Assembly (NCBI GenBank): GCA_013388635.1 | Contig: JACAEX010000032.1 | Location: forward strand, 2,112-66,111 | Length of the DNA stretch: 64,000 bases | Reading direction: 5' to 3' | DNA from: Syntrophaceae bacterium | Lineage (GTDB): Bacteria; Desulfobacterota; BSN033; UBA1163 | Shown: positions 5,376 to 56,061 of the stretch, piece by piece | Numbering within the stretch: position 1 is the stretch's first letter | Layout: every line of letters begins with the position of its first letter | Made by a program: the position numbers and the translations under genes | Notes under the pieces: model-generated | Seen by the model: only the letters and a program-made list of their open reading frames with translations | Databases searched by the model: none | Told to the model about the DNA's origin: nothing

Positions 5376-7697
5376 TTACCATTGGACTAATTCGCTCTTC
5401 GGGTAACCTATGGTTGGCGCTCCACGGGAATTTCTCCTTGCAGAAACCCAAATCACCAGGAGTGACGATAGAAGACTTACCACCCCGGCTATGTAGACTA
5501 AGATTGGGCGGTAAATAAACCTTACCATGTGTGTCCCTGGAGGGGCCAACACTCCTCGGAAACAGCCGTTGACTCTGAAGATCGGAACCTTTTTCCCGTC
5601 GATGAAAGCCACCCAACCCGGGTACCACGAATCTCTTAAAACCAACAGACCTTCTAAAGGGCATTCTGTACGCACTAATACCTCTTCTGGGTCATCCAAT
5701 TCGAAAACCGCCTTTCCTTTGCTCGACGGGATCTCAGGGATCACTTCCGGCACGGGATTCCCCATGCCTTCAACCACTGCTACAGCATCGGTATCCCGGC
5801 TCAGAGAAAGTATCTGGTTTACCATGTTTGATCCCTCCTGATATCGGCAAGCCCGCTCAGCAAAGTAGAGTCGGCCGTGCGCTCCCGAAATTGCATAAGC
5901 CGAAAAATGGGTACCTCTGGTGAGCAGTTCCAACGCCAGCGATGGTGATTGGTCAGGCAACAATACAACACTTGCCCCCATGTGACTTAGAACGTTTGGG
6001 GAAAGGAAGTCGAAGAATACGGCTGTGTAGAAAGCGCTCCTCGGATGATGAAACATTGAATAATAATTATTCAGAAAGATAGCGGCGTTTACCTCGACAC
6101 ACCTAACACCATATACCTGGCCGAGGTTTGGTGGAATTGCAAAGTACAGCCTCGGGTCGACCGAGGCCACTCTTGCGTGCGGCCGGTAGGCCTTCAACCA
6201 TTCCACCACGAGGTTCGTTTTGAAATCGATCCTGTTCCATACCAACCTGTTCAATGAAAGAGGGAAGGCAAACGGAGCCAGGATGACCGCAGACATGAGC
6301 AGGGCGAATAGCCTCCCCCCGGCTATACGTAATATTACAAGCGCCAAAAGTCCGAATGCCAATAACAGGAAAGCAGTAGCTGGAAAGGCCGACATATCGT
6401 CTCTTGGCACTGGTGAACGAATGAACTGCCAGGCGCTTACACCTAACATCGTTGTTCCTACGGCAAATACCACTATCGCTTCACTTTTCTTCGATGTTCG
6501 ATAGGCGTCCAAGCCATATGGAGCAAGGAAAGAAATCGAAACCCAAAAGAGACCCTTTAGGTAGAGTGTTGGGAGGCCCATATAACTTAAGAGTCTCGAT
6601 AGCCGGCTTCCAGCCCAAGGCAGGGGAAGGAGAATGAAAAAGGCGATTGCGAGAAAAACGACCCAAACCGTTAGCAGCTTCTTCCGCTCAAAGAGTGCGC
6701 AAGCTAAGAGTGCACCGAGGGCGGGAAGTAAGAACATATCTGAAGGGAGAGTCACGAGTGATTTCCAACTGTAGTCGAATCCAAACCATCCATGTTTCTT
6801 GTAAAGATATCCCGAACTAAGTAACTTCAGAAGAGGAAGCCATAGAGCGGCCAGGCCTATTAACGTCATTCCGCTGACCACCCCCGTTATCTTGATCCTT
6901 TTGGAAAAGCTTTCTTGAATGATGCCAGGCCGTCTCCCGCCAAAAAGATAGGTGGTGAAGGCTACACCCGCCATAATTAGGCATGCTACCGGATGCCCGG
7001 AATGCCCCATAAGGAGGAAACAGAGCACTGCTCGGGCGATGCTTGGCCAATACCTCCATACCGCCTGTTCGAGGGTAAGGAGACACCAGGGAAGAACAAG
7101 GTAGGCTGCAGAATCTGTAAGAACCAAGCGATCAAGGACCCATGGGTTAAGAATGAAAAGGCCTGTCCCAAGAGTCACCGCAGCAGGGGAAATATCGCGC
7201 TTTGAAAGCCAAATGTAAGCACCTGTCCCCCCGAAGAGCAATCCGAGAAGAAGGGTTACTGAGTACATCCAGCTTGTTTGAAAGAGATAGAAGGGTAGCC
7301 GAAACGGATTAAACGGCCGACTTTGTCCGCTATCGAGCGTCGGGATACCTCCACCCGTATAGGGATCCCAAAGAGGCAACTTGCCTCGTTTCAGGTTAAA
7401 CGCGAAATAGAAATTCTCTGCCCAGGTGATCCCAATAGAACCAACTTCAGGGTCTTCAGCCCAGGGCATAAGATTGAACCTTTTAATCGCAGGATAATCG
7501 ACTCGGAGTGTTTGACCGGAACTTTGTGCCAACATGGAACTCCACTGAGGGTACTTTTCAAACGGTATGAAATTCTTGCCAGTAATGAGCGGAAAGAAGG
7601 TCACAGTTAGGAGGAGAAAAAGAAACAGCAGAGAATAAAGTTTCTCTCCTTTTATCGGAAGGGGTAATTTCAAGGTAGATCTCGAGCTGATTTTCAC
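5376..7697 (-). CDS. YfhO-family polytopic membrane protein (GT-C-like glycosyl transferase partner of GtrB/CsbB-type GT2)
   Basis: 773 aa with more than 10 predicted TM helices. The C-terminal beta-rich domain DSWYPGWVAFIDGKKVPIFRVNGCFRGVLAPPGTHMVRFIYRP resembles the conserved YfhO C-terminus. Confidence 0.6.
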   Translation of the reverse strand: MKISSRSTLKLPLPIKGEKLYSLLFLFLLLTVTFFPLITGKNFIPFEKYPQWSSMLAQSSGQTLRVDYPAIKRFNLMPWAEDPEVGSIGITWAENFYFAFNLKRGKLPLWDPYTGGGIPTLDSGQSRPFNPFRLPFYLFQTSWMYSVTLLLGLLFGGTGAYIWLSKRDISPAAVTLGTGLFILNPWVLDRLVLTDSAAYLVLPWCLLTLEQAVWRYWPSIARAVLCFLLMGHSGHPVACLIMAGVAFTTYLFGGRRPGIIQESFSKRIKITGVVSGMTLIGLAALWLPLLKLLSSGYLYKKHGWFGFDYSWKSLVTLPSDMFLLPALGALLACALFERKKLLTVWVVFLAIAFFILLPLPWAGSRLSRLLSYMGLPTLYLKGLFWVSISFLAPYGLDAYRTSKKSEAIVVFAVGTTMLGVSAWQFIRSPVPRDDMSAFPATAFLLLAFGLLALVILRIAGGRLFALLMSAVILAPFAFPLSLNRLVWNRIDFKTNLVVEWLKAYRPHARVASVDPRLYFAIPPNLGQVYGVRCVEVNAAIFLNNYYSMFHHPRSAFYTAVFFDFLSPNVLSHMGASVVLLPDQSPSLALELLTRGTHFSAYAISGAHGRLYFAERACRYQEGSNMVNQILSLSRDTDAVAVVEGMGNPVPEVIPEIPSSKGKAVFELDDPEEVLVRTECPLEGLLVLRDSWYPGWVAFIDGKKVPIFRVNGCFRGVLAPPGTHMVRFIYRPILVYIAGVVSLLSSLLVIWVSARRNSRGAPTIGYPKSELVQW

Positions 7698-45177: not shown

Positions 45178-45615
45178 TCACATCGCCTCCAGTACGATCG
45201 TCACCTTGCCATCAGGAAGAATCTGAGGAGAGGCCTTTAACTTCATTCCGACCCGGATCTTCTGGATCTCCATCTTTGGCATCCAGCCCATGATCCGTAA
45301 ACCTTCCTCCACCTCCAAAATCCCGATTGGACAGGGCTCGAATTGGACGGTCGAAAAGGGCATCAGAGGCTGCCGAAGAGCGAAGTGTTCGGGCGGCACA
45401 TAAATCTTTGTGAAGGTCACCAGGCTCCCTTCTCCCTTGATCGGTTTCCACTCCATCTCGCTTCCCATACAGTGTGAACAATCAGCCCTCGGTGGATAAT
45501 ACTTCTTTCCGCACCCCCTGCAAACGGTCATCATGATCCTTCCTTCGGCAAGGTCCTTGGCAAATCGGCCCACCTTTGTCTGGCTGAAAGCCAGAGAGAA
45601 GTCCTTGAACTCCAT
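45178..45615 (-). CDS. DUF35-family Zn-ribbon + OB-fold protein (thiolase-associated scaffold subunit)
   Basis: CRGCGKKYYPPRADCSHC zinc ribbon followed by an OB fold. Start codon is 1 nt after the stop of the upstream thiolase. Confidence 0.7.
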   Translation of the reverse strand: MEFKDFSLAFSQTKVGRFAKDLAEGRIMMTVCRGCGKKYYPPRADCSHCMGSEMEWKPIKGEGSLVTFTKIYVPPEHFALRQPLMPFSTVQFEPCPIGILEVEEGLRIMGWMPKMEIQKIRVGMKLKASPQILPDGKVTIVLEAM

Positions 45616-45616
45616 C

Positions 45617-46774
45617 TCATTCCCTCCTGAAGATGTGAACGGCAGCCACCTGGCCGGTCCCTCCCACATTATGGGTAAGGCCGATCTCCGCATCCTTCAC
45701 CTGTCTCTGACCGGCCTCTCCTCTCAACTGCTTTGTGATTTCGATAGCCATCGAAACCCCGGTCGCTCCAAGGGGGTGGCCCTTCGATTTCAATCCGCCA
45801 TCCACATTGACCGGAGTCCTTCCATCGACATACGTCTCCTTCGCCTCGATCAGCTTTCCCCCTTCCCCCTTCTCGCAAAAGCCGAGATCCTCGTAGGCAA
45901 CAATCTCTGCAATCGTAAAACAGTCATGGACCGTGGCCACATCGATGTCCGCCGGACCCACACCTGCCATCTGATAGGCAATTCTGGCAGCCTCCCGGGA
46001 CGCTGCGATTGAAGTCAAAGACTCTCTCTCAGTGATTCGCATCGTGTCCGTGGCAAGGCCAAGGCCTGCGATCCAGACCGGCTTTGTCGAGATGGTTTTC
46101 GCCCTCTCTTCAGATGCAAGAAGAACCGCTGCTGCCCCATCCGTGATCAAACTGCAATCAAAAAGCTTCAACGGGTGGGCGACCGTAAAGGAGGTCAGCG
46201 CCTTCTCCAGGGTGACCTCCTTTTGCATGTGAGCAAAGGGATTGAGATGGCCATAGTAATGGTTCTTAACCGCAACCATGGCCATCTGTTCCTCTGTGGT
46301 CCCATATTCAGCCATGTGGGCATTTGCCATCATGGCATAATAACCCGGGAAGGTCGTTCCAAAAGGGTATTCCCACATGGAATCGCCACCCCTTCCCATA
46401 ATCTCTGTGGCCACGCTGGTCGGAACCTCGGTCATCTTCTCCACGCCCACCACGAGAACGAGATCGGCCAGGCCCGAGGCCACATTCATCCACCCTGTCC
46501 TCAAAGCCATGCTTCCAGTGGCGCAGGCACCCTCGACCCGAAAATTGGGTTTGGGATAGAATCCGATATAGTCGTGCACCTGGGCAGAGGGCTGAAGGGC
46601 AAGAGAAAATTCATCTCCTGCGATGCCTGTCACCATGCTGTCCACTTCTTTCAGGGAAACACCCGCGTCGTCCAAACAGGCCTTCACTGCCTCAAAAGTC
46701 AGTTCCCTGAGGGAGGCATCCGATCTCACGCCGAACTTTCCATGACCGATTCCAACGATTGCCACCCGTTTCAT
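45617..46774 (-). CDS. Thiolase-family protein (SCP-x/archaeal acetoacetyl-CoA thiolase type)
   Basis: VAIVGIGHGKFG N-terminus. Active-site Cys in EGACATGSMAL. C-terminal His and Cys (GHPLGATG). 385 aa. Confidence 0.85.
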   Translation of the reverse strand: MKRVAIVGIGHGKFGVRSDASLRELTFEAVKACLDDAGVSLKEVDSMVTGIAGDEFSLALQPSAQVHDYIGFYPKPNFRVEGACATGSMALRTGWMNVASGLADLVLVVGVEKMTEVPTSVATEIMGRGGDSMWEYPFGTTFPGYYAMMANAHMAEYGTTEEQMAMVAVKNHYYGHLNPFAHMQKEVTLEKALTSFTVAHPLKLFDCSLITDGAAAVLLASEERAKTISTKPVWIAGLGLATDTMRITERESLTSIAASREAARIAYQMAGVGPADIDVATVHDCFTIAEIVAYEDLGFCEKGEGGKLIEAKETYVDGRTPVNVDGGLKSKGHPLGATGVSMAIEITKQLRGEAGQRQVKDAEIGLTHNVGGTGQVAAVHIFRRE

Positions 46775-46845
46775 ACCTTCTTCTATCCTCTCTTTCCGAT
46801 CGCCACGCTGGCGATTTCATTCTTTTGAATGCGGGGCTTGCCTTC

Positions 46846-48363
46846 TCAGGCCTGCCTGCCACCATAGAGCGTCTTCACCTTCTCTCGATCGATCGAACCA
46901 TCCTCTCTCTTCGGAAGGGATTCCACAAATTGAACATAGCCCGGTTTTTTATAGCGTGCGATCCGGCCTCCCACAAAATCGATCAATTCCTGCTCTGTCA
47001 ATCTCATATTCGGTTTTAAGACGCAGACCGCCTTAACTCCTTCGCCGAACTTGGGATCGGGCACCCCAAAAACTGAAACCTCCTTGACGCTCGGATGCTC
47101 AAGGATCACCTTCTCAACCTCCACGGGATACACATTTTCACCGCCGGGCTTGATCAATTCTTTTTCAGCCTTTCTCCCTGCAAACCATAAATAGCCATCC
47201 TCATCGAGGCGGCCCGTATCTCCTGTATGATGCCAGCCATCTCGAAAAGTATGCCTGCTCAACTCCTCCTCTCCCCAGTATCCCAGGAAAACCAATGGAC
47301 CTCGGACCACGATTTCACCCACCTGACCAGTCTCGACCTCATGGTCAAACTCATCCACGATCTTCATCCTCACCAGAAGGCCGGCTTTTCCTGCGCATCC
47401 TGGCCTTTCCCGATTTGAACAGACGCTGGTCAGGCCCATGGTCTCTGTCTGGCCATAGGCCAGCCAGAATTGGCCATGGCCAAGGCTTTCAAATCTCTTG
47501 ACGGTCTCCTGAGAATCGACACCGAATATGTGCTTCAGGGAGAAGAGGGTGAACTCGCCCTTGGCCTGTTCATCGAGCAGCTGCAGGAGAATCGGTGGAA
47601 AGTCGCCGATCAGGGTGATCTTCTCCTGATCGATCATCTTCCCTGCAGCCTTCGGATCGAACTTTGAAATCATCACATTTCGGCCTCCCGCATGCATCAT
47701 CATCAGGGCCCCGATCATCCCTCCGATATGAAAGAGAGGAAGGATATTCAGATACGAGTCTTCAGGCGTGAGGCCCATGAGAGCGATATTTTGAATGGTA
47801 CAGAAGATCAGATTATGTTGGCTGATCATCGCCCCGCGAGGTCTTCCCTGAACTGCAGCGGTGTGCATGATCACAAAGGGATCATCGCCACTCAGTTCAA
47901 CAGGGTCTGCTGGCGAGGCCTTCAGCAACGAGTCGAAGGCGATGAAGTCTGCCCCTCCAGGTCCGAAGGTCACAAACTCCCTGAGGGAAGGACATCTCCC
48001 TCGAATTTCCGTAATCATCTTCTCGAAATCCGGATCCACCACCATCATCACCGGTTGGGTATTGGTCAGATTGTAGATCACCTCCTCAGCCGAGAGCCGG
48101 AAGTTGATCGGAACCATGGTAGCTCCTGTGCAGGCGATGCCGCCCATTAAAGGAAAGAACTGGGGGTAGTTCTTGGCCAAGATAGCGATCCGGTCGCCTC
48201 TCTTTATCCCTCTCTGAATCAAGCCTCCTGCCACCCGGTTGGCCTGGTCAAAAAGCTCTCCGTATGTGGTCTGCCTGCTCTCTGCCACGATGGCTGTTCT
48301 GTCTTTATAGAGCCTCGCATTCCTCTTAAAAATATCATAGATCGTAAAATCACGAATATTCAT
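46846..48363 (-). CDS. AMP-dependent synthetase/ligase (acyl-CoA synthetase)
   Basis: AMP motif region. TGDTGRLDEDGYLWFAGR. C-terminal lysine. 505 aa. Confidence 0.85.
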   Translation of the reverse strand: MNIRDFTIYDIFKRNARLYKDRTAIVAESRQTTYGELFDQANRVAGGLIQRGIKRGDRIAILAKNYPQFFPLMGGIACTGATMVPINFRLSAEEVIYNLTNTQPVMMVVDPDFEKMITEIRGRCPSLREFVTFGPGGADFIAFDSLLKASPADPVELSGDDPFVIMHTAAVQGRPRGAMISQHNLIFCTIQNIALMGLTPEDSYLNILPLFHIGGMIGALMMMHAGGRNVMISKFDPKAAGKMIDQEKITLIGDFPPILLQLLDEQAKGEFTLFSLKHIFGVDSQETVKRFESLGHGQFWLAYGQTETMGLTSVCSNRERPGCAGKAGLLVRMKIVDEFDHEVETGQVGEIVVRGPLVFLGYWGEEELSRHTFRDGWHHTGDTGRLDEDGYLWFAGRKAEKELIKPGGENVYPVEVEKVILEHPSVKEVSVFGVPDPKFGEGVKAVCVLKPNMRLTEQELIDFVGGRIARYKKPGYVQFVESLPKREDGSIDREKVKTLYGGRQA

Positions 48364-48390
48364 CTGGCCTCCGCCTCCCTTCTCTTTACG

Positions 48391-49248
48391 TCAATAGACG
48401 ATCCCAGCGTACCCCACAAAGCTGCTGTCCGGCATGATGTCATAACTGGTGTAGTAATCGAGGAGAATCCCTTTTTCCGCACCCATTGCCTTGCAAGTTG
48501 CTATGGCAGAGGCTGCTGCACCTGCGCTACAGGCGCTGTCATTCTCCAGTGTGTGGTTGATCAGACCTTCCGCATCCATTCTTAATGCACGATCGATAAA
48601 TCCTTTGTCATTCTCCCTTTTCACCCAATCGACTGCAGAGGGCCCGGTCCCCTTCGAGAGAAACCCGTAGTTCGGACCGTAATGCGTCAGATCGGTCGAT
48701 CCGATCGCAAGGATCGAAATCCCCTCCTTATTTGCAACCTCAGCCACTGCCTCTCCTAAGGCCCTGGCCCTCGGTGAAAGCGGCGATCGGACGGCGAGGA
48801 GCCTTGCTTCAGGGAAGAAATGCTTGACCATGGCCAGCTGGATCTCAATGGTGTTGTCACCGCTGGACGGGTTCTCCTTTTTCGTCTCAATCTCCTTCAT
48901 CACCTTCTCTACCAAATCGGTGGCGATCTCGATGTCGCCCAATGGGGTCTCCCATCTCTCCTCGGTCACAACCCGGGGAAGGTCCTCAGAAGAGAGGTGG
49001 CCTCCGTAGAGGACGACCACATCGACCTCCCTTTTTCTCTTCAATAGATCGAAGACCCTCGCAGCCAGTTTTCCGGAAAAATACCAGCCCGCATGGGGAA
49101 CAATTCCACCCAGACCTTTAACCGGTAGGTCAGGAGGTGACCATTCTTCTAAGAAGGAGACGATCTCCCGTTCACAATCCCTTCTATCCCATGGATACCA
49201 TCCCCTTGGCAAGCTCCTCTTTCTACGGTTCATCTTTCTCACCTCCAC
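48391..49248 (-). CDS. MEMO1-family protein (AmmeMemoRadiSam system protein B-like)
   Basis: GIVPHAGWYFSG and GSTDLTHYGPNYGF, the hallmark Memo motifs. No AMMECR1 or radical-SAM partner genes are adjacent. Confidence 0.7.
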   Translation of the reverse strand: MEVRKMNRRKRSLPRGWYPWDRRDCEREIVSFLEEWSPPDLPVKGLGGIVPHAGWYFSGKLAARVFDLLKRKREVDVVVLYGGHLSSEDLPRVVTEERWETPLGDIEIATDLVEKVMKEIETKKENPSSGDNTIEIQLAMVKHFFPEARLLAVRSPLSPRARALGEAVAEVANKEGISILAIGSTDLTHYGPNYGFLSKGTGPSAVDWVKRENDKGFIDRALRMDAEGLINHTLENDSACSAGAAASAIATCKAMGAEKGILLDYYTSYDIMPDSSFVGYAGIVY

Positions 49249-49308
49249 CCTCTGAGTTATCAGTTCGGAGTTCAGAGTTTGGAGCTCAAAAGGAGAAACA
49301 CCGAACTG

Positions 49309-51270
49309 TTATATCTTTTCAAGCGTGGCCATTCCCAACAGCCTGAGAAGATTCGCCATCACATTTTGAAATGCCCTGACCAGCGAAAGCCGGAAGGTTC
49401 GAAGCCCGTTGTCCTGAAGGTGGATGAACAGGGTTTGGACCTCTGCCTGCGGGTCTGGATGTTCATAAAAATTGGTGAATGAGCTGGCCAGGTCAAAGGC
49501 ATATTCAGCCAGTTGAGATACCCTCAGGGTCTCACCCGTTCTGGCAACGACTGAGGAAAAACTTGAGAGGACATCCAAAAGACCCCTCTCGGTCTCCGTC
49601 AAATCAGCAGGGATGCAATCCCTTCGCCACTCGAGATCGATCATCCGCTCTTCAGCCTTTCTCAGGATACTGCATGCCCTGGCATGGGCATATTCCAGGT
49701 ACACCCCTGTGTCACCCGTCGTCTTCAGCGCCTCATCAAAGTCGAAGACGATCTGGCTCTCCAGCGTAAACTTAAGCAGGTAGTAGCGGATGGCAGCAGA
49801 GGCCAGTGACGACGCCACACCCTCCTCCAGGGGATGATCTGCCTTCTCGATCACCTTCTGTTTCACCATCCGGATAAAGTCATTTGCCTTTACCCCTGTT
49901 CCTGATCGACCCGACATGGCAAAGGCCTTCTTCTCATTCGTCTCCTCCATGCCAAGAAGCCGTGCGGCCTGTGCAGAGAGGTTGACCACTTCATAAGCTA
50001 AGTGGATCGACTCCTCAGCCTCTTTCTCAAAACCGATCTGCCGAAGGCACTCGCCGACCACCTGCTGGGGATAGCTCTGCCGTCTGTCGATCACATTGAT
50101 CACCCGATCGGCATGGCCAAAACGGCGAGGAAGCCGATCTGCCGGCTCCCCCTGCTGCGCCGTTGTCCAGAGCATCTCTCCATTGTTCTGAATGCCCCAC
50201 GGCCTGTAGAGGAAATCCCTCTGAAGCAGGCCGAACTTCCAGAGCTGGTAAGCCACATCCTTTCCCGTATAGGTGACGCTGCCGTTCGAGCGGACCAGGA
50301 TCTTATCCAGACTCTTCACCCCTTCATCGGTCTCAACCAGGCCACCGAAAGGAACGACCCAGCATCCTTTGTTCGGGCCATCGGTCTCAAATCGGATCGC
50401 CTTCCTCTCCTTGAGGAGCTCAAACGTGGCCTCCCAGAAACCCTGACGGATGATGTCCGACTCCCAGTTGAGAAGGTCATAGAATATGGAAAGTTGAGCG
50501 ACCGTCTCCAGATGCGCCTGAACAATCTTCCTGGCCAACTCCTTTGCAAAGGAAGAAATGGGATGCTTGCCACCCTCGATCTGATGGAGCACCTCCTCTC
50601 TCTTCTGAAGAAGGGTTGGGTTTGCTTCGACCTCATTCTGAAAACGGGCGTAGAGATCCCAGCAGAAGTAGTCGAGCGGCTGATCCTCCGGGACCTTTTG
50701 CCATATGTCTTCGAATCCAGAGCTGCCTGGTGTGAAGCGAGGAGGATCAAGATAGAGCAACGCGGTCACCACATCGACCACTTGAAGACCTGTATCGTCG
50801 ATGTAGTTGCAGACCTCCGTGGAAAACCCCAGCCACTCGAGCACCCTGGCCACGGTATCTCCCAGGACCGCGTTCCTCAGGTGACCGATGTGCATGGCCT
50901 TGTTCGGATTGACGCTGGTATGTTCGATGAAGACCTTCTCTTTTCGGGTTGAGGCCGGACGGCCAAAGGCATCCCCTTTTTCGAGGATTTGCGGAAGGAG
51001 GTCCTCTGCCAGAGCCCGCCAATCCACCTTGAAGTTTATATATCCAGGAGGGCTGGACGTCACCTCCCGGATGTAGGGAGGAAGATTGGATCTCAATTTC
51101 TCGACCGTCTCTTTTGCGATCTCTAAGGGAGGCCGGCGCCTCTCCTTTGCAAGGGAGAGGCAGATCGCGCTTGAGAAGTCTCCGATCTCCTTCTGTGGGG
51201 GCACGTTGAAAGGTATCTCCTCAACGGTCAGAAGTTCTTTCAGTAATGTCGCAACCCCGTCCCTGATCAT
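49309..51270 (-). CDS. argS: Arginine--tRNA ligase (long form)
   Basis: Arg_tRNA_synt_N region. HIGH motif (HIGHLRNAVLGD). DALR anticodon-binding domain (YLEYAHARACSILRKA). 653 aa. Confidence 0.85.
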   Translation of the reverse strand: MIRDGVATLLKELLTVEEIPFNVPPQKEIGDFSSAICLSLAKERRRPPLEIAKETVEKLRSNLPPYIREVTSSPPGYINFKVDWRALAEDLLPQILEKGDAFGRPASTRKEKVFIEHTSVNPNKAMHIGHLRNAVLGDTVARVLEWLGFSTEVCNYIDDTGLQVVDVVTALLYLDPPRFTPGSSGFEDIWQKVPEDQPLDYFCWDLYARFQNEVEANPTLLQKREEVLHQIEGGKHPISSFAKELARKIVQAHLETVAQLSIFYDLLNWESDIIRQGFWEATFELLKERKAIRFETDGPNKGCWVVPFGGLVETDEGVKSLDKILVRSNGSVTYTGKDVAYQLWKFGLLQRDFLYRPWGIQNNGEMLWTTAQQGEPADRLPRRFGHADRVINVIDRRQSYPQQVVGECLRQIGFEKEAEESIHLAYEVVNLSAQAARLLGMEETNEKKAFAMSGRSGTGVKANDFIRMVKQKVIEKADHPLEEGVASSLASAAIRYYLLKFTLESQIVFDFDEALKTTGDTGVYLEYAHARACSILRKAEERMIDLEWRRDCIPADLTETERGLLDVLSSFSSVVARTGETLRVSQLAEYAFDLASSFTNFYEHPDPQAEVQTLFIHLQDNGLRTFRLSLVRAFQNVMANLLRLLGMATLEKI

Positions 51271-51363: not shown

Positions 51364-53001
51364 ATGAATCCCTTCTCCGAAATTGACACTGTGAAACTCT
51401 GTGGATATAATGGAAAAACTTACGCAACCGATGATCGGTCGAAAAAGGATCTCAAATTGAATTGCCAGAATAAAACCTCTGTTAGAGAGAATATCCTCGA
51501 CCTCTTCAAACCGTTCCCGATCGACCTCATAAAGATTTACCCAAAGTCCTTCTCCTCTGACAAAGGATTGACTTATGGATTGATCAGAACGTCTCAGGGA
51601 AAGAAACTGGCGGTCTTAGGAGAGGCCAGCCTTGTCCTGAAGGACCCCTTCAGAGGGGAATGCTACCGTAACCCCTCGGCACTCAAGGTCTGCGATCTCA
51701 CGGCTGAAAACACTCAGTGCCTGATGGAGCTCTTCCCTTACACGAGACCGTGCTCCCTTCGGAGCCACCCAATCACCATCGGAACCGGGGATCGCCTGGG
51801 CCTGGCCACTCCTGGCCATATCCGGGCGATCCGGAAATTTGATGTCCGTCCGGTCCTGGCCCAGCAGTCTACTCGCGAGAACAGGCAGACCGGAAGGACA
51901 TTTGAAGAGGTGGTCCGCGATGCTGCGTGGGCTGTCTTCCAGGAAGATTATCGGGACGGATATGGAGCAGATGGGGATCATCTCAAGTCCCTTGAGGAGG
52001 TGAAGGACAGCCTCAATTCAGGCGTCTCCATGGTCACTCTCGATCTCTCCGAAAAATTGATCTCCGAAGCCTTTGGCCTTCCAAAAGAGACCATTGATCG
52101 CCGATTTGAGAGGGAGATCGATGTCGGAGATAGGGAGGTTTTCTCCCATATGTTCCTCGGTAAAGAATTCTCATTTCAGACGCTTCGCGGAGGATTTTCT
52201 ATACGGTTTGATGAAGAGACCCTCAAACGAAATGTCCTGCTCTTTCACAAGGCCCTTGACTTTACAGAGGAGGTTTACGAATCTATCCGGTTTCGATCGG
52301 GAGGGGCGCATATCGATTTCGAAATCTCAATCGACGAGACACCCTTTCCCACTTCTCCGGAAAACCATCTCTTCCTCATCATCGAACTGAACCATAGAGG
52401 GATCAGAATCGATTCTCTCGCCCCCCGTTTCGTCGGCGACTTTCAAAAGGGAGTGGACTATCGCGGTGATTTATCAGAATTTCGTCAACAGCTCCGGAAA
52501 CATGTCCGCATCGCAGAAGAGTATGGACATTACAAGATCTCCGTGCACTCAGGAAGCGATAAATTCTCAATCTTCCCTGACTTAGGAGAATTGGCAAGGA
52601 AGGCCCTTCATCTAAAAACAGCCGGTACGAGCTGGCTTGAGGCGATGCGCCTGATCGCCCTTGTCAACCCTTTGCTCTACAGGGAGATGCATCGTTTCGC
52701 GTTTTCGGCATTCAAAGAGGCATCCAAGCTCTACCATGTGACCACAGAGCTTGATCAGATTCCAGACCTTGAAAGCCTTCAGGACGAGGAGCTTCCAGCC
52801 CTTTTGGATCAAGATGACTCAAGACAGCTTCTCCACATCACCTATGGATATCTGCTTAACGCAAGGAATGAGACGGGGAGGAATTTTTTCAGAGAGCGCC
52901 TCTTTCAAACGCTCGCCCGGTATGAGGAAGACTACTGGTCTCTTCTTGAGACACATATTGAAAAGCATTTGACCTCCATTGGGCTAAAGAAGATTAATTA
53001 A
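51364..53001 (+). CDS. Hypothetical 545-aa protein. Possibly a TIM-barrel sugar epimerase/aldolase-accessory-like enzyme (UxaE/GatZ-like), very uncertain.
   Basis: Real gene: long ORF, 59 nt upstream of the next gene, coding-like composition. I recognise no diagnostic motif. IGTGDRLGLATPGH and VHSGSDKFS hint at a metal-dependent sugar enzyme. The functional guess is speculative. Confidence 0.3.
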   Translation: MNPFSEIDTVKLCGYNGKTYATDDRSKKDLKLNCQNKTSVRENILDLFKPFPIDLIKIYPKSFSSDKGLTYGLIRTSQGKKLAVLGEASLVLKDPFRGECYRNPSALKVCDLTAENTQCLMELFPYTRPCSLRSHPITIGTGDRLGLATPGHIRAIRKFDVRPVLAQQSTRENRQTGRTFEEVVRDAAWAVFQEDYRDGYGADGDHLKSLEEVKDSLNSGVSMVTLDLSEKLISEAFGLPKETIDRRFEREIDVGDREVFSHMFLGKEFSFQTLRGGFSIRFDEETLKRNVLLFHKALDFTEEVYESIRFRSGGAHIDFEISIDETPFPTSPENHLFLIIELNHRGIRIDSLAPRFVGDFQKGVDYRGDLSEFRQQLRKHVRIAEEYGHYKISVHSGSDKFSIFPDLGELARKALHLKTAGTSWLEAMRLIALVNPLLYREMHRFAFSAFKEASKLYHVTTELDQIPDLESLQDEELPALLDQDDSRQLLHITYGYLLNARNETGRNFFRERLFQTLARYEEDYWSLLETHIEKHLTSIGLKKIN

Positions 53002-53060
53002 GACTGAGAAAAAAGGAGCCCGGGTGTGAAGCTCAACCTTTTGAGAATTTTGGGAGGAGG

Positions 53061-55214
53061 GTGATGGCAGAGATAACACAAGAGGTGATTCAGAGGATCG
53101 TAGATTCCAGTGTTCCTGAAGAGCTTTCCCTTGAAAAAATGCAGCCGATCACGGACGATCATGCCAGCCATATCCTCCAACTCATTCAGATGGGTCAGAC
53201 CTGCCTGGCCGCAGACCACGTCCTCTTTCCTGAGATAAACGGAGCTCTGTCAAAAACGGTGGGTGGAGTGATCCAAAGGCTCAACATTCTCTTCACCCAA
53301 TCCAGACTGAAGAAAGAGGAGCCAAAAACATCCCTTAGCAAGGCGGTCAATCTCCGGCAATATGCCTACGAAGCCCTGTTGGAGATGGCCCTGAACTTTT
53401 ATGGTTTGGAGAGTCGCTGGCTCATCGAAGATGAGAAGTCCGAATGCCTCGAATATATTTTGAACGTGCTGGACGAGTGGGAGAATGTCGAACGAAAAGA
53501 GGGAGGGATTTCGGTCGGCGAGGCGGTCATAAGAAAATGGCTCTCAACGATGAAAAGGGTTCAGAGGGGCCACAGCATGGCGGCAGAAACTGCGCGCCGG
53601 ATTGAAGAGAGCCTGAGCGTTCAAAAAAATCTCTCAATCCACTTCCTGAGGAAGGCTGAAACCGAGATCAAAGGGAATATCTATTATCGGATCGTTAAGG
53701 AAGGGAAATGCAAGTTTGGCAATGACTATGCCCTAGGCCTGAGATGGCTCAGGCATCTCGGTTTTGAACAGGTCTCCACCAACCCTGTTCTGGCTGCCAG
53801 GGCTTATCAGGATGAACCCGGTCTGATTGAGAGGTTTCGAGAAGAGGCACAAAAACATCCAAGCTTCAAGCAGTGGATCTCCAGGCCGTCCCAATATGGA
53901 GAAGAGATCGCCCTTTTCGCAACGCTTCTGGCCCTCTGGGATAACCTCTACGTCTTTCGACCAATCTTCTTCAACCTCGGTGAGACTTCTGGAGGGGGAG
54001 TGGTCAGCTTTCAGCTCAATCCAAACATCGCCCACCTTGTCGAGGAGAGCATTCGAGATGTCTTCAGGGCCTTTTCGCTTGCGTCGGAGAAACTCTCTGC
54101 CTATGACGCCTATCTCTTAGCAGGCTATCGGATCCAGGAAAACAGAGGCAGACCGAACATGGTCATCAAGGTAGCGGCCACGACCCCTGCAGCGAGACAT
54201 ATCACTCGAACCATCAACGCCTTTGGTTTCGGATCCAACATCACGGTCGATTTCAGCCTCAGCCAGGAGGCGACGCTCATTCTCGAAGAAATGGACGGAA
54301 TGGCCAGAGCGGTAAGGAAGGGAATCCACCCAACCCAGCTCTATATGACCAACATGGGAGGACGTCTGGAGAGCCACCTGAGAGAGGTGAAGCTGGAAGA
54401 GCTTTTTCAGGAGTTAAGGAGAAAGATCGGCGAAGAAAGAGCGGTTCAGAAGATCGCTGCCCTCTCCGAAGCAAACGGCACGAAGGAATGGGTATCCAGA
54501 GCGAAAACCTACGAAGAGAAGGTTCGGGCTGTAACCCGGTTTGCTCATGGCCAGAGAAGGATCGATCAGCCCATCTTTGAGGCCTTAAAAGAGGTCGCTT
54601 CAAAAGAGCCCCTTCAGACCTGGGAGGAGGCGATCAGCAAATCAGGAACACTGGTGGCAAGAAGGGTCTGGTCAATCTTCTTTTCCTGGGAGAACCGTGA
54701 GAGATGGGTCGCCTACCTGATGAAGAACTATAACCTTACCCATGATCAGGCCAAATTGATCATGGGTCGCATTCACTACCTTCCCGCATCCAAAAGAAAA
54801 CCGCTTGATACCTATTGGACGCTCTCCTCCCGAAACCTGGTCCACACCGAATTTCCAGACCATCAGGAGAATGTGAGAAAGATGGCCGAAGGACCTCAAT
54901 TCGATCTGAAAGAATATGAAGAGTCGATTTCACATACCTTTCCCTCCGGAACTCTCGAGCAGCTGAATCAGATCGACGATTTCCGGAGGGCCTTTGAGAT
55001 CAACTCTGAGTTAGCCGAAATCTTCAAAGGGGTGGGCATTTTGGATGATCTGGGCTCAATGGGTTTAGATCCTGAGGACTGGCCGAGCTTCGGTCCTGTT
55101 CAGAAGACGATTTCTGAATTCAGATCGGCTTACGATGCCTTCCAGAAGGAGATGGTCTCCGCTCTTAGAAAACCTCTCAAGAAAAAGAAGAGCAGGTCCG
55201 TGATGAAAAGATGA
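53061..55214 (+). CDS. Transaldolase-fold protein, atypically long (717 aa), with N- and C-terminal extensions
   Basis: Core transaldolase motifs in the right order and spacing: EQVSTNP (TTNPSL-like), MVIKVAATTP (Schiff-base Lys, cf. ILIKLAST), GSNITVDFSLSQEA (cf. NCNLTLLFSFAQA), TNMGGRL (cf. SPFVGRI). These span residues about 220..440. The remaining roughly 215 aa N-terminal and 270 aa C-terminal are unassigned. Confidence 0.6.
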   Translation: MMAEITQEVIQRIVDSSVPEELSLEKMQPITDDHASHILQLIQMGQTCLAADHVLFPEINGALSKTVGGVIQRLNILFTQSRLKKEEPKTSLSKAVNLRQYAYEALLEMALNFYGLESRWLIEDEKSECLEYILNVLDEWENVERKEGGISVGEAVIRKWLSTMKRVQRGHSMAAETARRIEESLSVQKNLSIHFLRKAETEIKGNIYYRIVKEGKCKFGNDYALGLRWLRHLGFEQVSTNPVLAARAYQDEPGLIERFREEAQKHPSFKQWISRPSQYGEEIALFATLLALWDNLYVFRPIFFNLGETSGGGVVSFQLNPNIAHLVEESIRDVFRAFSLASEKLSAYDAYLLAGYRIQENRGRPNMVIKVAATTPAARHITRTINAFGFGSNITVDFSLSQEATLILEEMDGMARAVRKGIHPTQLYMTNMGGRLESHLREVKLEELFQELRRKIGEERAVQKIAALSEANGTKEWVSRAKTYEEKVRAVTRFAHGQRRIDQPIFEALKEVASKEPLQTWEEAISKSGTLVARRVWSIFFSWENRERWVAYLMKNYNLTHDQAKLIMGRIHYLPASKRKPLDTYWTLSSRNLVHTEFPDHQENVRKMAEGPQFDLKEYEESISHTFPSGTLEQLNQIDDFRRAFEINSELAEIFKGVGILDDLGSMGLDPEDWPSFGPVQKTISEFRSAYDAFQKEMVSALRKPLKKKKSRSVMKR

Positions 55215-55224
55215 GGGAGTTGCC

Positions 55225-56061
55225 GTGAAGATCTCAATCTGCAATGAGCTTTTTCAGGGTTGGCCCATTGAAAGGGTCTTTGAGTATGCCAGCCGATTGG
55301 GCTACGAAGGCGTTGAGATTGCCCCTTACACCCTGGCCGATTCGGTTACGGAAATCTCCCTCCCAAGGCGCAGGGCGATCCGCCAGGCAGCGGAGAGGAG
55401 CGGCATCGAAATCGTCGGACTCCACTGGCTTCTCGTAAAACCTGAAGGGCTTCACATCAGCCATCCGGATGAGATCATCCGGATAAGGACCCAGGAGTAT
55501 ATGGAGGCCCTTATCCATTTCTGTGCGGATATCGGCGGGAAGTTCCTGATCCACGGTTCTCCCCACCAGAGGACGGTTCAGGAGAGATGGAACTTTAATG
55601 ATTCTTGGGAAAGGGCCAAGGAGACGTTCCGGGCCTGCCTTGAGACCGCAAGAAAAAGAGAGGTGACCTATTGCATTGAGCCAATCTCACGAGAGGCCAC
55701 CAATTTCGTCAACACCGTGGAAGAAGCGCTTCGCCTGGTCACAGAGATCAGACATCCCAATTTCAAAATGATGTTCGATTGTCGGCATGCGGCTGCTCAG
55801 GAAAAGTCGGTGACAGAAGCCCTGATCCATGCCCTGGATTCCCGGATGCTCTGCCATGTCCACGTCAACGACATCAGTGGAAAGGGGCCTGGTTTTGGAG
55901 AGACCAGGTTCTCGCCCATCCTGAAAATGTTGATGAAAAATAACTATAAGGGTTACCTCTCCGTGGAGGTCTTTGACTTTGACCCGGATCCCCAGACGAT
56001 CGCCAGCCGAAGTATCGGATACCTGAAGGGGATCCTGGAGACCCTTTCCGAGAAGGGCTGA
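55225..56061 (+). CDS. Sugar phosphate isomerase/epimerase (xylose-isomerase-like TIM barrel; ketose 3-epimerase / hydroxypyruvate isomerase family)
   Basis: GTG start behind a GAGGGAG RBS. GYEGVEI. Metal-binding Glu and His positions (CIEP...E, HVHVND). 278 aa. Confidence 0.75.
   Translation: MKISICNELFQGWPIERVFEYASRLGYEGVEIAPYTLADSVTEISLPRRRAIRQAAERSGIEIVGLHWLLVKPEGLHISHPDEIIRIRTQEYMEALIHFCADIGGKFLIHGSPHQRTVQERWNFNDSWERAKETFRACLETARKREVTYCIEPISREATNFVNTVEEALRLVTEIRHPNFKMMFDCRHAAAQEKSVTEALIHALDSRMLCHVHVNDISGKGPGFGETRFSPILKMLMKNNYKGYLSVEVFDFDPDPQTIASRSIGYLKGILETLSEKG

Follow-up and report, generated by a model that had tools for sequence, protein, structure and literature searches.

An elaborated transaldolase-fold protein and its epimerase partners as a putative breakdown module for 2-keto-hexuronic acids

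Introduction

What substrate would be handled by a trio of genes in which an unusually long transaldolase-fold protein is encoded between two predicted epimerases? This question is raised by a stretch of 64,000 nucleotides (nt) of contig JACAEX010000032.1 from a Syntrophaceae bacterium, hereafter the window, whose + strand carries genes at 51364-53001 (545 amino acids, aa), 53061-55214 (717 aa) and 55225-56061 (278 aa). Genes 1 and 2 are 62 nt apart and genes 2 and 3 are separated by 10 nt, a sequence scan found no terminator-like site on the + strand between the genes, and the trio is predicted to be co-transcribed as one operon. An earlier note, made from the DNA letters alone, had described three tightly spaced, co-directional genes at 51364-56061 with neither kinase nor transporter alongside, and had suggested that a transaldolase-fold aldol-transfer enzyme combined with an epimerase/isomerase and an unknown partner would form an uncharacterised route for a ketose or a sugar acid. 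The layout was as it described, and no kinase or transporter gene adjoins the trio within the window. Since each open reading frame (ORF) has strong homologues, we regard all three as real genes and not as chance ORFs.

We propose, with moderate confidence, that the trio is a breakdown module for 2-keto-hexuronic acids in which the long protein, here called TAL717, cleaves D-fructuronate. The broader suggestion of an aldol-transfer route is supported by the match of gene 1 to UxaE, by a barrel model of TAL717, by the co-occurrence of the genes in other genomes and by an invariant lysine. Where the note had allowed for either a ketose or a sugar acid, the evidence points more narrowly to keto-hexuronates that come from inositol or uronates.

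Results

Fold and architecture of TAL717

We sought to place TAL717 in a protein superfamily. Direct sequence searches were marginal. TAL717 scored 22.9 bits against the Pfam family TAL_FSA (PF00923), under the gathering threshold of 27, and a direct search of the Protein Data Bank (PDB) returned a transaldolase match at E 0.077, which became E 1.8e-4 with a family profile. Profile-profile alignment (hhalign) of the TAL717 family to Escherichia coli TalB or FsaA alone, with sequences that match 1ucw and 1l6w exactly, was partial and reached E 0.005. The link to transaldolases became clear only with a structural model and a bridged profile. An AlphaFold2 (AF2) model, built from an alignment of 18 family members (A1), had a mean predicted local distance difference test score (pLDDT) of 90.9 and a predicted template modelling score (pTM) of 0.90. 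When the model was compared with the PDB by Foldseek, the top 37 matches were all transaldolases (best E 8.6e-10, target TM-score 0.69-0.72). Once TalB was joined by bridging TAL_FSA proteins, hhalign aligned residues 190-702 of TAL717 with residues 2-317 of TalB at a probability of 99.9% and E 1.9e-33. Because of this bridged alignment, and because archaeal TAL717 orthologues carry a precomputed PF00923 match, we consider the homology of TAL717 to the transaldolase/fructose-6-phosphate aldolase (FSA) superfamily to be secure, though the protein lies outside the curated Pfam model.

In the AF2 model the transaldolase-type barrel is preceded by an all-helical domain and interrupted by a helical insertion between strands 6 and 7 (Table 1). 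Residues are numbered throughout in the 717-aa frame that starts at 53061. The barrel strands assigned by DSSP are residues 218-221, 235-240, 314-318, 367-372, 391-397, 427-431, 571-575 and 593-597. The N-terminal domain, when modelled alone, had a pLDDT of 88.5 and found no significant fold match in the PDB (best E 0.056, TM-score < 0.3). Most of the insertion is without a counterpart in TalB, with residues ~446-520 and 541-570 left unaligned by hhalign. Strands 7 and 8 follow it, with the motifs LPASKRKP and HTEFP, and the C-terminal helices at residues 599-703 align with those of TalB. The barrel had at first been placed at residues ~220-440, with extensions of ~215 and 270 aa on either side whose nature a structure prediction was to clarify. 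In the prediction these extensions are extra structural elements around a transaldolase barrel; the N-terminal one holds as a domain, whereas the supposed C-terminal extension is made up of the insertion, the end of the barrel (strands 7-8) and the C-terminal helices. The length of 717 aa likewise needed adjustment: the ORF at 53061-55214 is real, and the public gene call starts at ATG 53064, behind a GGAGGAGG Shine-Dalgarno sequence that is not so placed for GTG 53061, and gives 716 aa. A fusion of transaldolase with phosphoglucose isomerase was rejected, since TAL717 scored just 12 bits against that model and its N-terminal domain is all-helical.

The active site of TAL717

Residue equivalences were taken from the bridged hhalign alignment to TalB, and invariance was tabulated in 69 full-length family members from three distant clades. 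The transaldolase motifs that had been noticed in the letters are present, with STNP at residue 239, IKVAA at 369, SNITV at 392 and TNMGGR at 430. Besides the predicted Schiff-base lysine K370 (Table 1), residues S239/T240/N241 (TalB T33/T34/N35) and T430 (TalB S176) are invariant, as are D222, N320, Y428, H439, R441, E597 and, in the N-terminal domain, D52. N393 and T395 correspond to TalB N154 and T156, and T395 is nearly invariant in alignment A1. D222 lies directly after strand 1, and a catalytic Asp stands at the end of that strand in TalB (D17) and FSA (D6); hhalign, however, pairs D222 with TalB D20, three residues from D17.

If TAL717 were a transaldolase of the TalB type, then a catalytic Glu (E96) and a Phe (F178) would be expected, and Q318 and M432 are found instead. 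If it were an FSA, then Gln would be expected together with Tyr131 in a chain of 220 aa; the Gln is present (Q318), the position of Tyr131 is Met432, and the chain has 716 aa. Judged from the alignment, the Gln/Met signature fits neither transaldolases (Glu/Phe) nor FSA (Gln/Tyr). The phosphate site of TalB (Arg181, Ser226, Arg228) is retained in TAL717 as R435, S577 and R579, which form a predicted anion site and are invariant together with K578. The earlier note had expected the reading to fail if the conserved Lys/Asp/Glu constellation were missing; the Lys and the Asp are invariant in the 69 members, and all of them have Gln in place of the Glu, as FSA does. From the invariant lysine and the conserved active-site and anion-site residues, TAL717 looks catalytically competent. 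Assignment as an ordinary pentose-phosphate transaldolase was rejected on account of the replaced catalytic Glu and Phe and a context of sugar-acid catabolism. On sequence and model together, the TAL717 family is best described as a new, architecturally elaborated subfamily of the transaldolase superfamily with a predicted new substrate class.

Two sets of relatives were observed alongside the family. One distant full-length protein (P0153, 27% identity) has Gly for the Schiff-base lysine, Arg for Q318 and a degenerate strand-6 motif, and may be an inactive paralogue. Nine bridging proteins of 320-590 aa (P0212, P0220, P0238, P0240, P0246, P0248, P0250, P0258 and P0262) are clear TAL_FSA members whose closest resemblance is to the TAL717 family. 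The consensus of TalB with these nine has Gln at the E96 position and Met at the F178 position, and the nine may be a sister group sharing the Gln/Met signature.

The flanking genes and their families

Gene 1, to which the earlier note could assign no family while naming UxaE as a profile to try, matched that profile strongly. Against Pfam PF16257 (UxaE) it scored 570.4 bits (cutoff 27.1, E 3.7e-171) over profile positions 1-473 of 475, and against the solved fructuronate-tagaturonate epimerase UxaE of Cohnella laeviribosi (6ila/6ilb) it scored 438 bits (353 bits against 9lhw). Judged by these scores, gene 1 encodes a full-length protein of the UxaE family (EC 5.1.2.7 family), for which epimerase activity is predicted. 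Since UxaE is a known but related family, this match leaves the reading of an aldol enzyme with epimerases unrefuted.

The start of gene 1 may be annotated too far upstream, by ~31 codons, with TTG 51457 (51457-51459) as the true start. This is suggested by the lack of a Shine-Dalgarno sequence at ATG 51364, by AAAAAGGA 7 nt ahead of the in-frame TTG, and by homologues that are 503-520 aa at most. A candidate operon promoter (Table 1) falls inside the annotated uxaE ORF, in its first 50 nt; being no more than a consensus match, it does not demonstrate function.

Gene 3 had been read as a xylose-isomerase-like triosephosphate isomerase (TIM) barrel of 278 aa, of the ketose 3-epimerase type, and this held up. 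It scored 133.9 bits against Pfam AP_endonuc_2 (PF01261; cutoff 31.1, E 1e-38). Its best NCBIfam match was IolO, 5-keto-L-gluconate epimerase (NF041099), at 107.6 bits, which is under the equivalog cutoff of 300, so that gene 3 is IolO-like and not an equivalog; ketose 3-epimerases were its other best named relatives. The closest solved relative in the PDB is TM0416 (2zvr), which is IolO. Aligned with TM0416, residues E152, D185, H213 and E248 (motifs CIEP, FDCRH, HVHVND and LSVEV) are conserved, and we take this Glu-Asp-His-Glu set to be the metal and catalytic ligands of the family.

Table 1. Features of the trio, with coordinates in the window.
Feature	Position	Strand	Basis or remark
UxaE-family epimerase gene (tagaturonate/fructuronate epimerase family)	51364..53001	+	545 aa as longest ORF
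Perfect sigma-70-type consensus (TTGACA, 17 nt, TATAAT)	51383..51411	+	promoter scan 12/12; candidate operon promoter
TAL717 gene, long transaldolase-fold protein	53064..55214	+	716 aa from ATG 53064
N-terminal all-helical domain, residues 1-215, family-specific	53061..53705	+	AF2 secondary structure; invariant LAAD motif (D52)
Transaldolase-type (beta/alpha)8 barrel, residues ~216-600	53706..54860	+	AF2/DSSP, Foldseek, hhalign
Q318 codon	54012..54014	+	at TalB catalytic Glu96; FSA likewise Gln (Gln59); invariant in 69
K370 codon, predicted Schiff-base lysine, strand 4	54168..54170	+	TalB K132 (hhalign); invariant in 69
M432 codon	54354..54356	+	at TalB Phe178 / FSA Tyr131; invariant in 69
Helical insertion between strands 6 and 7, residues ~436-570 (~135 aa)	54366..54770	+	AF2 secondary structure
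ASKRKP motif, residues 576-581	54786..54803	+	S577 = TalB S226, R579 = TalB R228 (phosphate-binding)
Xylose-isomerase-like TIM-barrel gene, ketose-3-epimerase/IolO-like group	55225..56061	+	278 aa; GTG start behind GAGGGAG Shine-Dalgarno

Distribution of the TAL717 family

A pattern scan with one genome per species found TAL717 relatives in 322 genomes. From these, 80 loci were fetched, all from metagenome-assembled genomes (MAGs), and they fell into three groups. The first consists of Thermodesulfobacteriota/Syntrophaceae-like MAGs, whose proteins are 64-75% identical to that of the window; the second of NC10/Methylomirabilota, Armatimonadota and Chloroflexota (50-63%); and the third of Thermoproteota (Thermofilaceae, Ignisphaera, Pyrodictiaceae), Bathyarchaeia, Aerophobetes and Dehalococcoidales (40-44%). 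Scoring of 8000 candidates gave at least 873 homologues at E <= 0.001, and the 120 listed are 69-100% identical. A search of 1.84 billion representatives returned 143 matches, including ~14 full-length clusters at 50% identity as well as shorter proteins that match residues ~215-450 and are TAL_FSA members (60-108 bits). Public data list the identical TAL717 sequence, from a Syntrophaceae MAG, as a hypothetical protein (P0001), and the names found in the sources are 'hypothetical protein', 'transaldolase family protein' and 'Transaldolase'. In the literature we found no description of the TAL717 family or of a fructuronate/tagaturonate (trans)aldolase.

Gene neighbourhoods of TAL717

Neighbourhoods were determined by tblastn, clustering and Pfam/NCBIfam profiles. 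ORF calling was weak in the GC-rich NC10 loci, and those loci were redone with stop-to-stop ORFs and tblastn. If the trio is a functional unit, then its genes should co-occur in other genomes, as the earlier note had pointed out. In 25 of the 26 loci of the Thermodesulfobacteriota clade the UxaE gene stands directly upstream of TAL717; 20 of the loci have the TIM gene, which in 16 is at most 400 nt downstream. UxaE also stands by TAL717 in unrelated phyla, in other arrangements. In NC10/Armatimonadota-type genomes a divergent 416-aa UxaE-family gene (Pfam, 173 bits) is found downstream in 12 of 33 loci, directly so in most of these and often overlapping the stop codon. In one Aerophobetes locus a gene of the UxaE family is found upstream, and Thermoproteota loci have one close by, on the same or the opposite strand. 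The UxaE-family gene is the sole partner of TAL717 that recurs across clades, and UxaE with TAL717 is the constant core.

Around this core, the genes that could supply keto-uronates vary by locus. One locus of the window's clade, which is without a TIM gene (L018), has, in order, a Zn-dehydrogenase, a 2-hydroxyacid dehydrogenase, UxaE, TAL717 and a canonical glucuronate isomerase UxaC (276 bits). Two archaeal loci (L073, L078) carry IolO-like, IolN, IolG, UxaE, IolM and TAL717 genes and then a glyoxylate/hydroxypyruvate reductase. Scores there, with NCBIfam cutoffs in brackets, were 372 (355) for IolG, 521 (450) for IolM and 241.5 (245) for IolN, with 223 for the IolO-like protein (223.5 bits for the neighbour at L073:3990-4820). 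In the Bathyarchaeota BA1 locus (L089), IolM-like and IolN-like genes precede TAL717. In L081 and L086 the IolG/IolM/IolN set is partly present, with an ABC sugar transporter, a glycerophosphodiesterase and a PfkB kinase in addition.

At three archaeal loci (L079:8299-9582(-), L084:11191-12474(+) and L085:7600-8886(-)) a gene for a 427-aa protein adjoins that of TAL717. It is without a Pfam or NCBIfam match, and its homologues are 4i6v, an amidohydrolase as yet uncharacterised (E 4e-39), and, more distantly, the uronate isomerases BH0493 (E 5e-12) and TM0064 (1j5s, E 3e-6); these similarities suggest that the family is probably a new uronate-isomerase-like subfamily.

Enzymes for the onward metabolism of a three-carbon (C3) acid recur. 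A glyoxylate/hydroxypyruvate reductase gene (600 bits, cutoff 455) lies directly downstream of TAL717 in L073, L078, L079 and L087. In L087 a divergent UxaE, a TIM gene, TAL717 and a 2-hydroxyacid dehydrogenase stand in a row, and in L088 TAL717 is followed by a TIM gene, the order found in the window, while a glycerate kinase gene lies close by. Overall, the possible suppliers differ between loci (UxaC, BH0493-like isomerase, IolB-like, IolG/IolM/IolN/IolO), and hydroxypyruvate reductase and glycerate kinase recur. A GFO/IDH/MocA dehydrogenase is present in 4 of the 26 Thermodesulfobacteriota loci. Among the annotated neighbours no UxuA, UxuB or KdgA was seen, the annotation of neighbours being not exhaustive.

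Two further associations were observed. A LarA-family gene (nickel-pincer racemase/epimerase, Lar_N) and a Fe-alcohol dehydrogenase gene occur near TAL717 both in a Thermodesulfobacteriota locus (L001:13084-15938) and in an archaeal one (L085:4921-7557), which hints at a further 2-hydroxyacid epimerisation step tied to the module. In a Thermofilaceae MAG, a myo-inositol-1-phosphate synthase gene (L083:3242-4417(-)) lies less than 5 kb from TAL717, with genes for an MFS transporter, a TIM barrel and a DeoC-type aldolase beside it.

Genomic setting of the trio

The trio is flanked upstream by argS, memo-like, acyl-CoA ligase and thiolase genes and downstream by usp and M48 peptidase genes, and dnaE, mutL, guaA, hflX and pilB elsewhere in the window mark an ordinary chromosome. 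A mobile or foreign island was rejected on the basis of these housekeeping flanks and of a base composition that is unremarkable around the trio. The block of argS, Memo-like and AMP-binding ligase genes (45178-51270, - strand), divergent from the trio and upstream of it, is syntenic in most Thermodesulfobacteriota loci (L001-L022), and the position of the trio in this clade therefore looks vertically inherited. In the window the block extends with the thiolase and a ChsH2-like gene.

The G+C content of the window is ~0.46-0.50 in the first 16 kb and ~0.50-0.54 at 16000-56000. It falls to 0.45 at 58-60 kb, in the surroundings of two small ORFs, DUF5658 being one. At 5376-7697 (- strand), with a gene for a PBP1-type transglycosylase/transpeptidase on one side and other ORFs on the other, is an ORF of 773 aa for which Pfam gave no hit at E <= 1e-5.

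Discussion

A proposed route through D-fructuronate

Transaldolases and FSA enzymes are specific for the 3S,4R configuration, and UxaE interconverts D-tagaturonate and D-fructuronate by epimerisation at C4. D-Fructuronate alone among these isomers is 3S,4R (D-threo), as transaldolases and FSA need, and for this reason we propose that the epimerases funnel keto-uronate stereoisomers into it. The 2-keto-hexuronates would arise from inositol by a Thermotoga-type pathway and from glucuronate or galacturonate by uronate isomerases. The IolO-like protein would then epimerise a ketose at C3, next to the keto group, turning 5-keto-L-gluconate into D-tagaturonate, and UxaE would epimerise C4 to give D-fructuronate. 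In PMC12632266, which cites Rodionova 2013, IolO is given as a 5-keto-L-gluconate 4-epimerase that yields D-tagaturonate, a change that falls at C3 when the ketose is numbered from its keto end.

TAL717 would act as a class I (lysine Schiff-base) enzyme, with K370 forming an imine at the C2 keto group, the C3-C4 bond being broken and the C6 carboxylate being held in the R435/S577/R579 anion site, where the classical enzymes hold phosphate. Cleavage would yield tartronate semialdehyde and leave a dihydroxyacetone unit bound to the enzyme. This unit could be freed, as in FSA, or passed to an aldehyde, for example to glyceraldehyde 3-phosphate to give fructose 6-phosphate, as in transaldolase. 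The absence of the FSA tyrosine makes us lean towards transfer, although the invariant Y428 and H439 might take over the role of that tyrosine. Tartronate semialdehyde, or its isomer hydroxypyruvate, would then be reduced to glycerate, possibly by the glyoxylate/hydroxypyruvate reductases that are often encoded beside TAL717 in other genomes. In this scheme the identities of the genes, the fold, the conserved residues and the neighbourhoods are what the analysis showed, whereas the substrate, the bond broken, the fate of the C3 unit and the part played by each epimerase are inferred.

A more specific version, which we hold only tentatively, is that TAL717 is a fructuronate:glyceraldehyde-3-phosphate transaldolase, the carboxylate counterpart of sulfofructose transaldolase. 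With UxaE it would then provide a kinase- and ATP-free route from keto-uronates to fructose 6-phosphate and glycerate. If this is true, the route from keto-uronates derived from inositol and from pectin or glucuronan would replace the mannonate/altronate branch through 2-keto-3-deoxygluconate (KDG; Ashwell) in energy-limited anaerobes (Thermodesulfobacteriota, NC10) and hyperthermophilic Thermoproteota. It would also represent a new catalytic solution, Gln/Met as against Glu/Phe or Gln/Tyr, supported by a fold-orphan N-terminal domain.

Several points weigh against cleavage of D-fructuronate. It is gene context alone that suggests the substrate, and the conserved triad is the phosphate site of TalB, which would accommodate a sugar phosphate no less well than a carboxylate. 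Both known acid/base residues are absent (Gln318 for Glu96, Met432 for FSA Tyr131), so the chemistry may differ from the TalB and FSA models. The equivalence of D222 with the catalytic Asp17 of TalB is just probable, since the profile alignment, ambiguous by three residues, pairs it with D20. The TIM protein of the window scores far under the IolO equivalog cutoff and could instead be a hydroxypyruvate-isomerase-like enzyme. As for the neighbourhoods, 21 of the 33 NC10/Chloroflexi-type loci have neither a UxaE-like gene downstream nor any other widely shared neighbour, and the window's own clade has no adjacent uronate isomerase, Iol feeder, reductase or kinase, its trio standing among housekeeping genes. 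In some archaeal loci an IolC-like kinase and an aldolase of class I or II are encoded too, so that the classical route may operate alongside.

Alternative readings of the trio

The main rival, unlikely in our estimate, is that TAL717 is a transaldolase or fructose-6-phosphate aldolase acting on ketose phosphates. UxaE would then serve as a ketohexose-6-phosphate 4-epimerase (tagatose 6-phosphate to fructose 6-phosphate) and the TIM protein as a ketose-phosphate 3-epimerase, feeding the pentose-phosphate and glycolytic pool. The full conservation of the TalB phosphate triad would be accounted for in this way, as would the FGGY (XylB-like) or PfkB kinases beside TAL717 in several archaeal loci, and in NC10-type loci TAL717 and a divergent UxaE-like gene stand alone, without uronate genes. 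No other transaldolase or FSA gene was found in the 64-kb window, which also suits such a role. If phosphosugars were the substrates, however, it would be hard to account for the most informative neighbours, which act on non-phosphorylated uronates or inositol derivatives (UxaC, BH0493-like, IolG/IolM/IolN/IolO-like, hydroxypyruvate reductase), or for the closeness of the window's UxaE to a solved tagaturonate/fructuronate epimerase. The operon in the window has no kinase, and the catalytic Glu and Phe of true transaldolases are replaced.

A bypass within the inositol pathway seems to us quite unlikely. Here TAL717 would split 2-deoxy-5-keto-D-gluconate, the IolB product (equivalent to 5-deoxy-fructuronate), into dihydroxyacetone and malonate semialdehyde, replacing IolC and IolJ. 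This compound matches fructuronate in its C3/C4 configuration and its C6 carboxylate, and the lack of a kinase in the window would agree with such a bypass. In 10 of the 26 Thermodesulfobacteriota loci a gene of the IolB/KduI family stands directly upstream of uxaE, and such a gene is found also in archaeal loci L058, L060 and L075. Yet that IolB-like gene scores under the IolB cutoff (105 against 205), no IolD, IolE or IolA signature was seen, and L058 has an IolC-like kinase and a class I aldolase besides TAL717. UxaE, the constant partner, would have no role in the bypass, and with hydroxypyruvate reductase and glycerate kinase as neighbours, tartronate semialdehyde is a better fit than malonate semialdehyde.

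It is very unlikely, in our view, that the trio is biosynthetic, building a keto-uronate or a rare sugar acid from C3 units (for the envelope or as a compatible solute, for example), or that TAL717 is a non-catalytic scaffold or regulator. The location by argS in a housekeeping region and the 69-100% identity among the 120 listed homologues are what a vertically inherited core function would give; glycosyltransferases occur near TAL717 in L081, L085 and L086; and the large extra domains have no known fold. An invariant lysine with complete active-site and anion-site residues speaks against a loss of catalysis, and the recurrent neighbours, which are catabolic enzymes, transporters and glycoside hydrolases, speak against biosynthesis. 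Aldol reactions being reversible, the direction cannot be read from the sequence.

The most improbable of these readings is that TAL717 is a retro-aldolase opening the ring of a keto-inositol (inosose), in reverse of the cyclisation by inositol-phosphate synthase, with the epimerases acting on the open-chain product: the TAL717 gene does directly follow IolM and IolN-like genes in L073 and L089, stands by IolG-like genes in several loci and has an inositol-1-phosphate synthase gene near it in L083, but these clusters also contain IolN, the hydrolase known for ring opening, so that this function is already covered, the window's clade and L018 have uronate genes without IolG, IolM or IolN, and the active-site geometry of transaldolases suits open-chain 2-ketoses. 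A sulfoquinovose pathway was rejected because no related neighbours were seen.

Significance

If TAL717 does cleave D-fructuronate, the trio would represent a new branch of hexuronate and inositol catabolism. It would account for the use of abundant compounds of plant and osmolyte origin by many uncultured anaerobes and archaea, with a bearing on metabolic models built from MAGs. A family spread over at least 322 species genomes, whose present labels are 'hypothetical' or the misleading 'transaldolase', would gain a function. As a predicted enzyme that joins a transaldolase fold to two large accessory elements and a novel active-site signature, TAL717 is also a possible biocatalyst for C-C bond formation with carboxylated aldehydes, a kind of synthesis for which FSA and TalB variants are already in use.

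Comparison with known systems

Classical and long (subfamily-3 type) transaldolases, such as those of Neisseria gonorrhoeae (3clm/7bbx) and Corynebacterium glutamicum (3r5e) and E. coli TalB (1onr/1ucw), have the same barrel as TAL717. They share with it the Schiff-base Lys on strand 4, the Asn/Thr of strand 5, the Ser/Thr of strand 6, the Arg/Ser/Arg anion site and, for TalB, the C-terminal helices. TAL717 differs in being twice as long, with a 215-aa helical N-terminal domain and a ~135-aa insertion, in having Gln for Glu96 and Met for Phe178, in its sub-threshold TAL_FSA score, and in a context of sugar acids and inositol instead of the pentose-phosphate pathway. E. coli FsaA (1l6w) belongs to the same superfamily and has Gln at the position of TalB Glu96 (Gln59). 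FsaA uses, and TAL717 would use, non-phosphorylated dihydroxyacetone as the C3 unit and an anionic aldehyde as the other fragment. FsaA is distinguished by its 220-aa, decameric form, by the catalytic Tyr131 where TAL717 has Met432, and by a sugar-phosphate substrate.

GarL (5-keto-4-deoxy-glucarate aldolase) and IolJ (2-deoxy-5-keto-D-gluconate 6-phosphate, or DKGP, aldolase), which in their sugar-acid pathways set free tartronate or malonate semialdehyde, also convert a six-carbon sugar acid into two C3 units, one of them a semialdehyde acid that is then reduced or oxidised. They are, however, metal-dependent class II aldolases of other folds that release pyruvate or dihydroxyacetone phosphate, and IolJ needs prior phosphorylation by IolC.

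At the level of the pathway, the closest parallel for the epimerase pair is the inositol pathway of Thermotoga maritima, which according to PMC12632266 and PMC3750489 (citing Rodionova 2013) runs through IolG, IolM, IolN and IolO and then UxaE, UxuB, UxuA, KdgK and KdgA. The IolO-like and UxaE pair of the window corresponds to its IolO and UxaE steps, and the IolG, IolM, IolN, IolO-like and UxaE genes likewise surround TAL717 in archaeal loci L073 and L078. The window itself does not carry a Thermotoga-type cluster, in which IolG, IolM and IolN accompany IolO and UxaE: no IolG, IolM or IolN homologue was found anywhere in its 64 kb. Whereas fructuronate proceeds in T. maritima, on the same account, through mannonate and KDG, the TAL717 loci have a transaldolase-fold enzyme and a hydroxypyruvate reductase in that place.

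The best functional analogy is sulfofructose transaldolase (PMC7491151; BmSF-TAL, 8bc2-8bc4), a precedent for a non-phosphorylated ketohexose with an anionic C6. In that pathway an isomerase makes a 2-ketohexose bearing a non-phosphate anion at C6, the C3-C4 bond is cleaved, the C3 unit is passed to glyceraldehyde 3-phosphate to give fructose 6-phosphate, and the anionic C3 aldehyde, sulfolactaldehyde, is freed and later reduced or oxidised. Sulfofructose transaldolases are small (~220 aa) and remote in sequence from TAL717 (E ~0.6); for TAL717 the anion would be a carboxylate, and the C3 unit might be either transferred in the same way or released.

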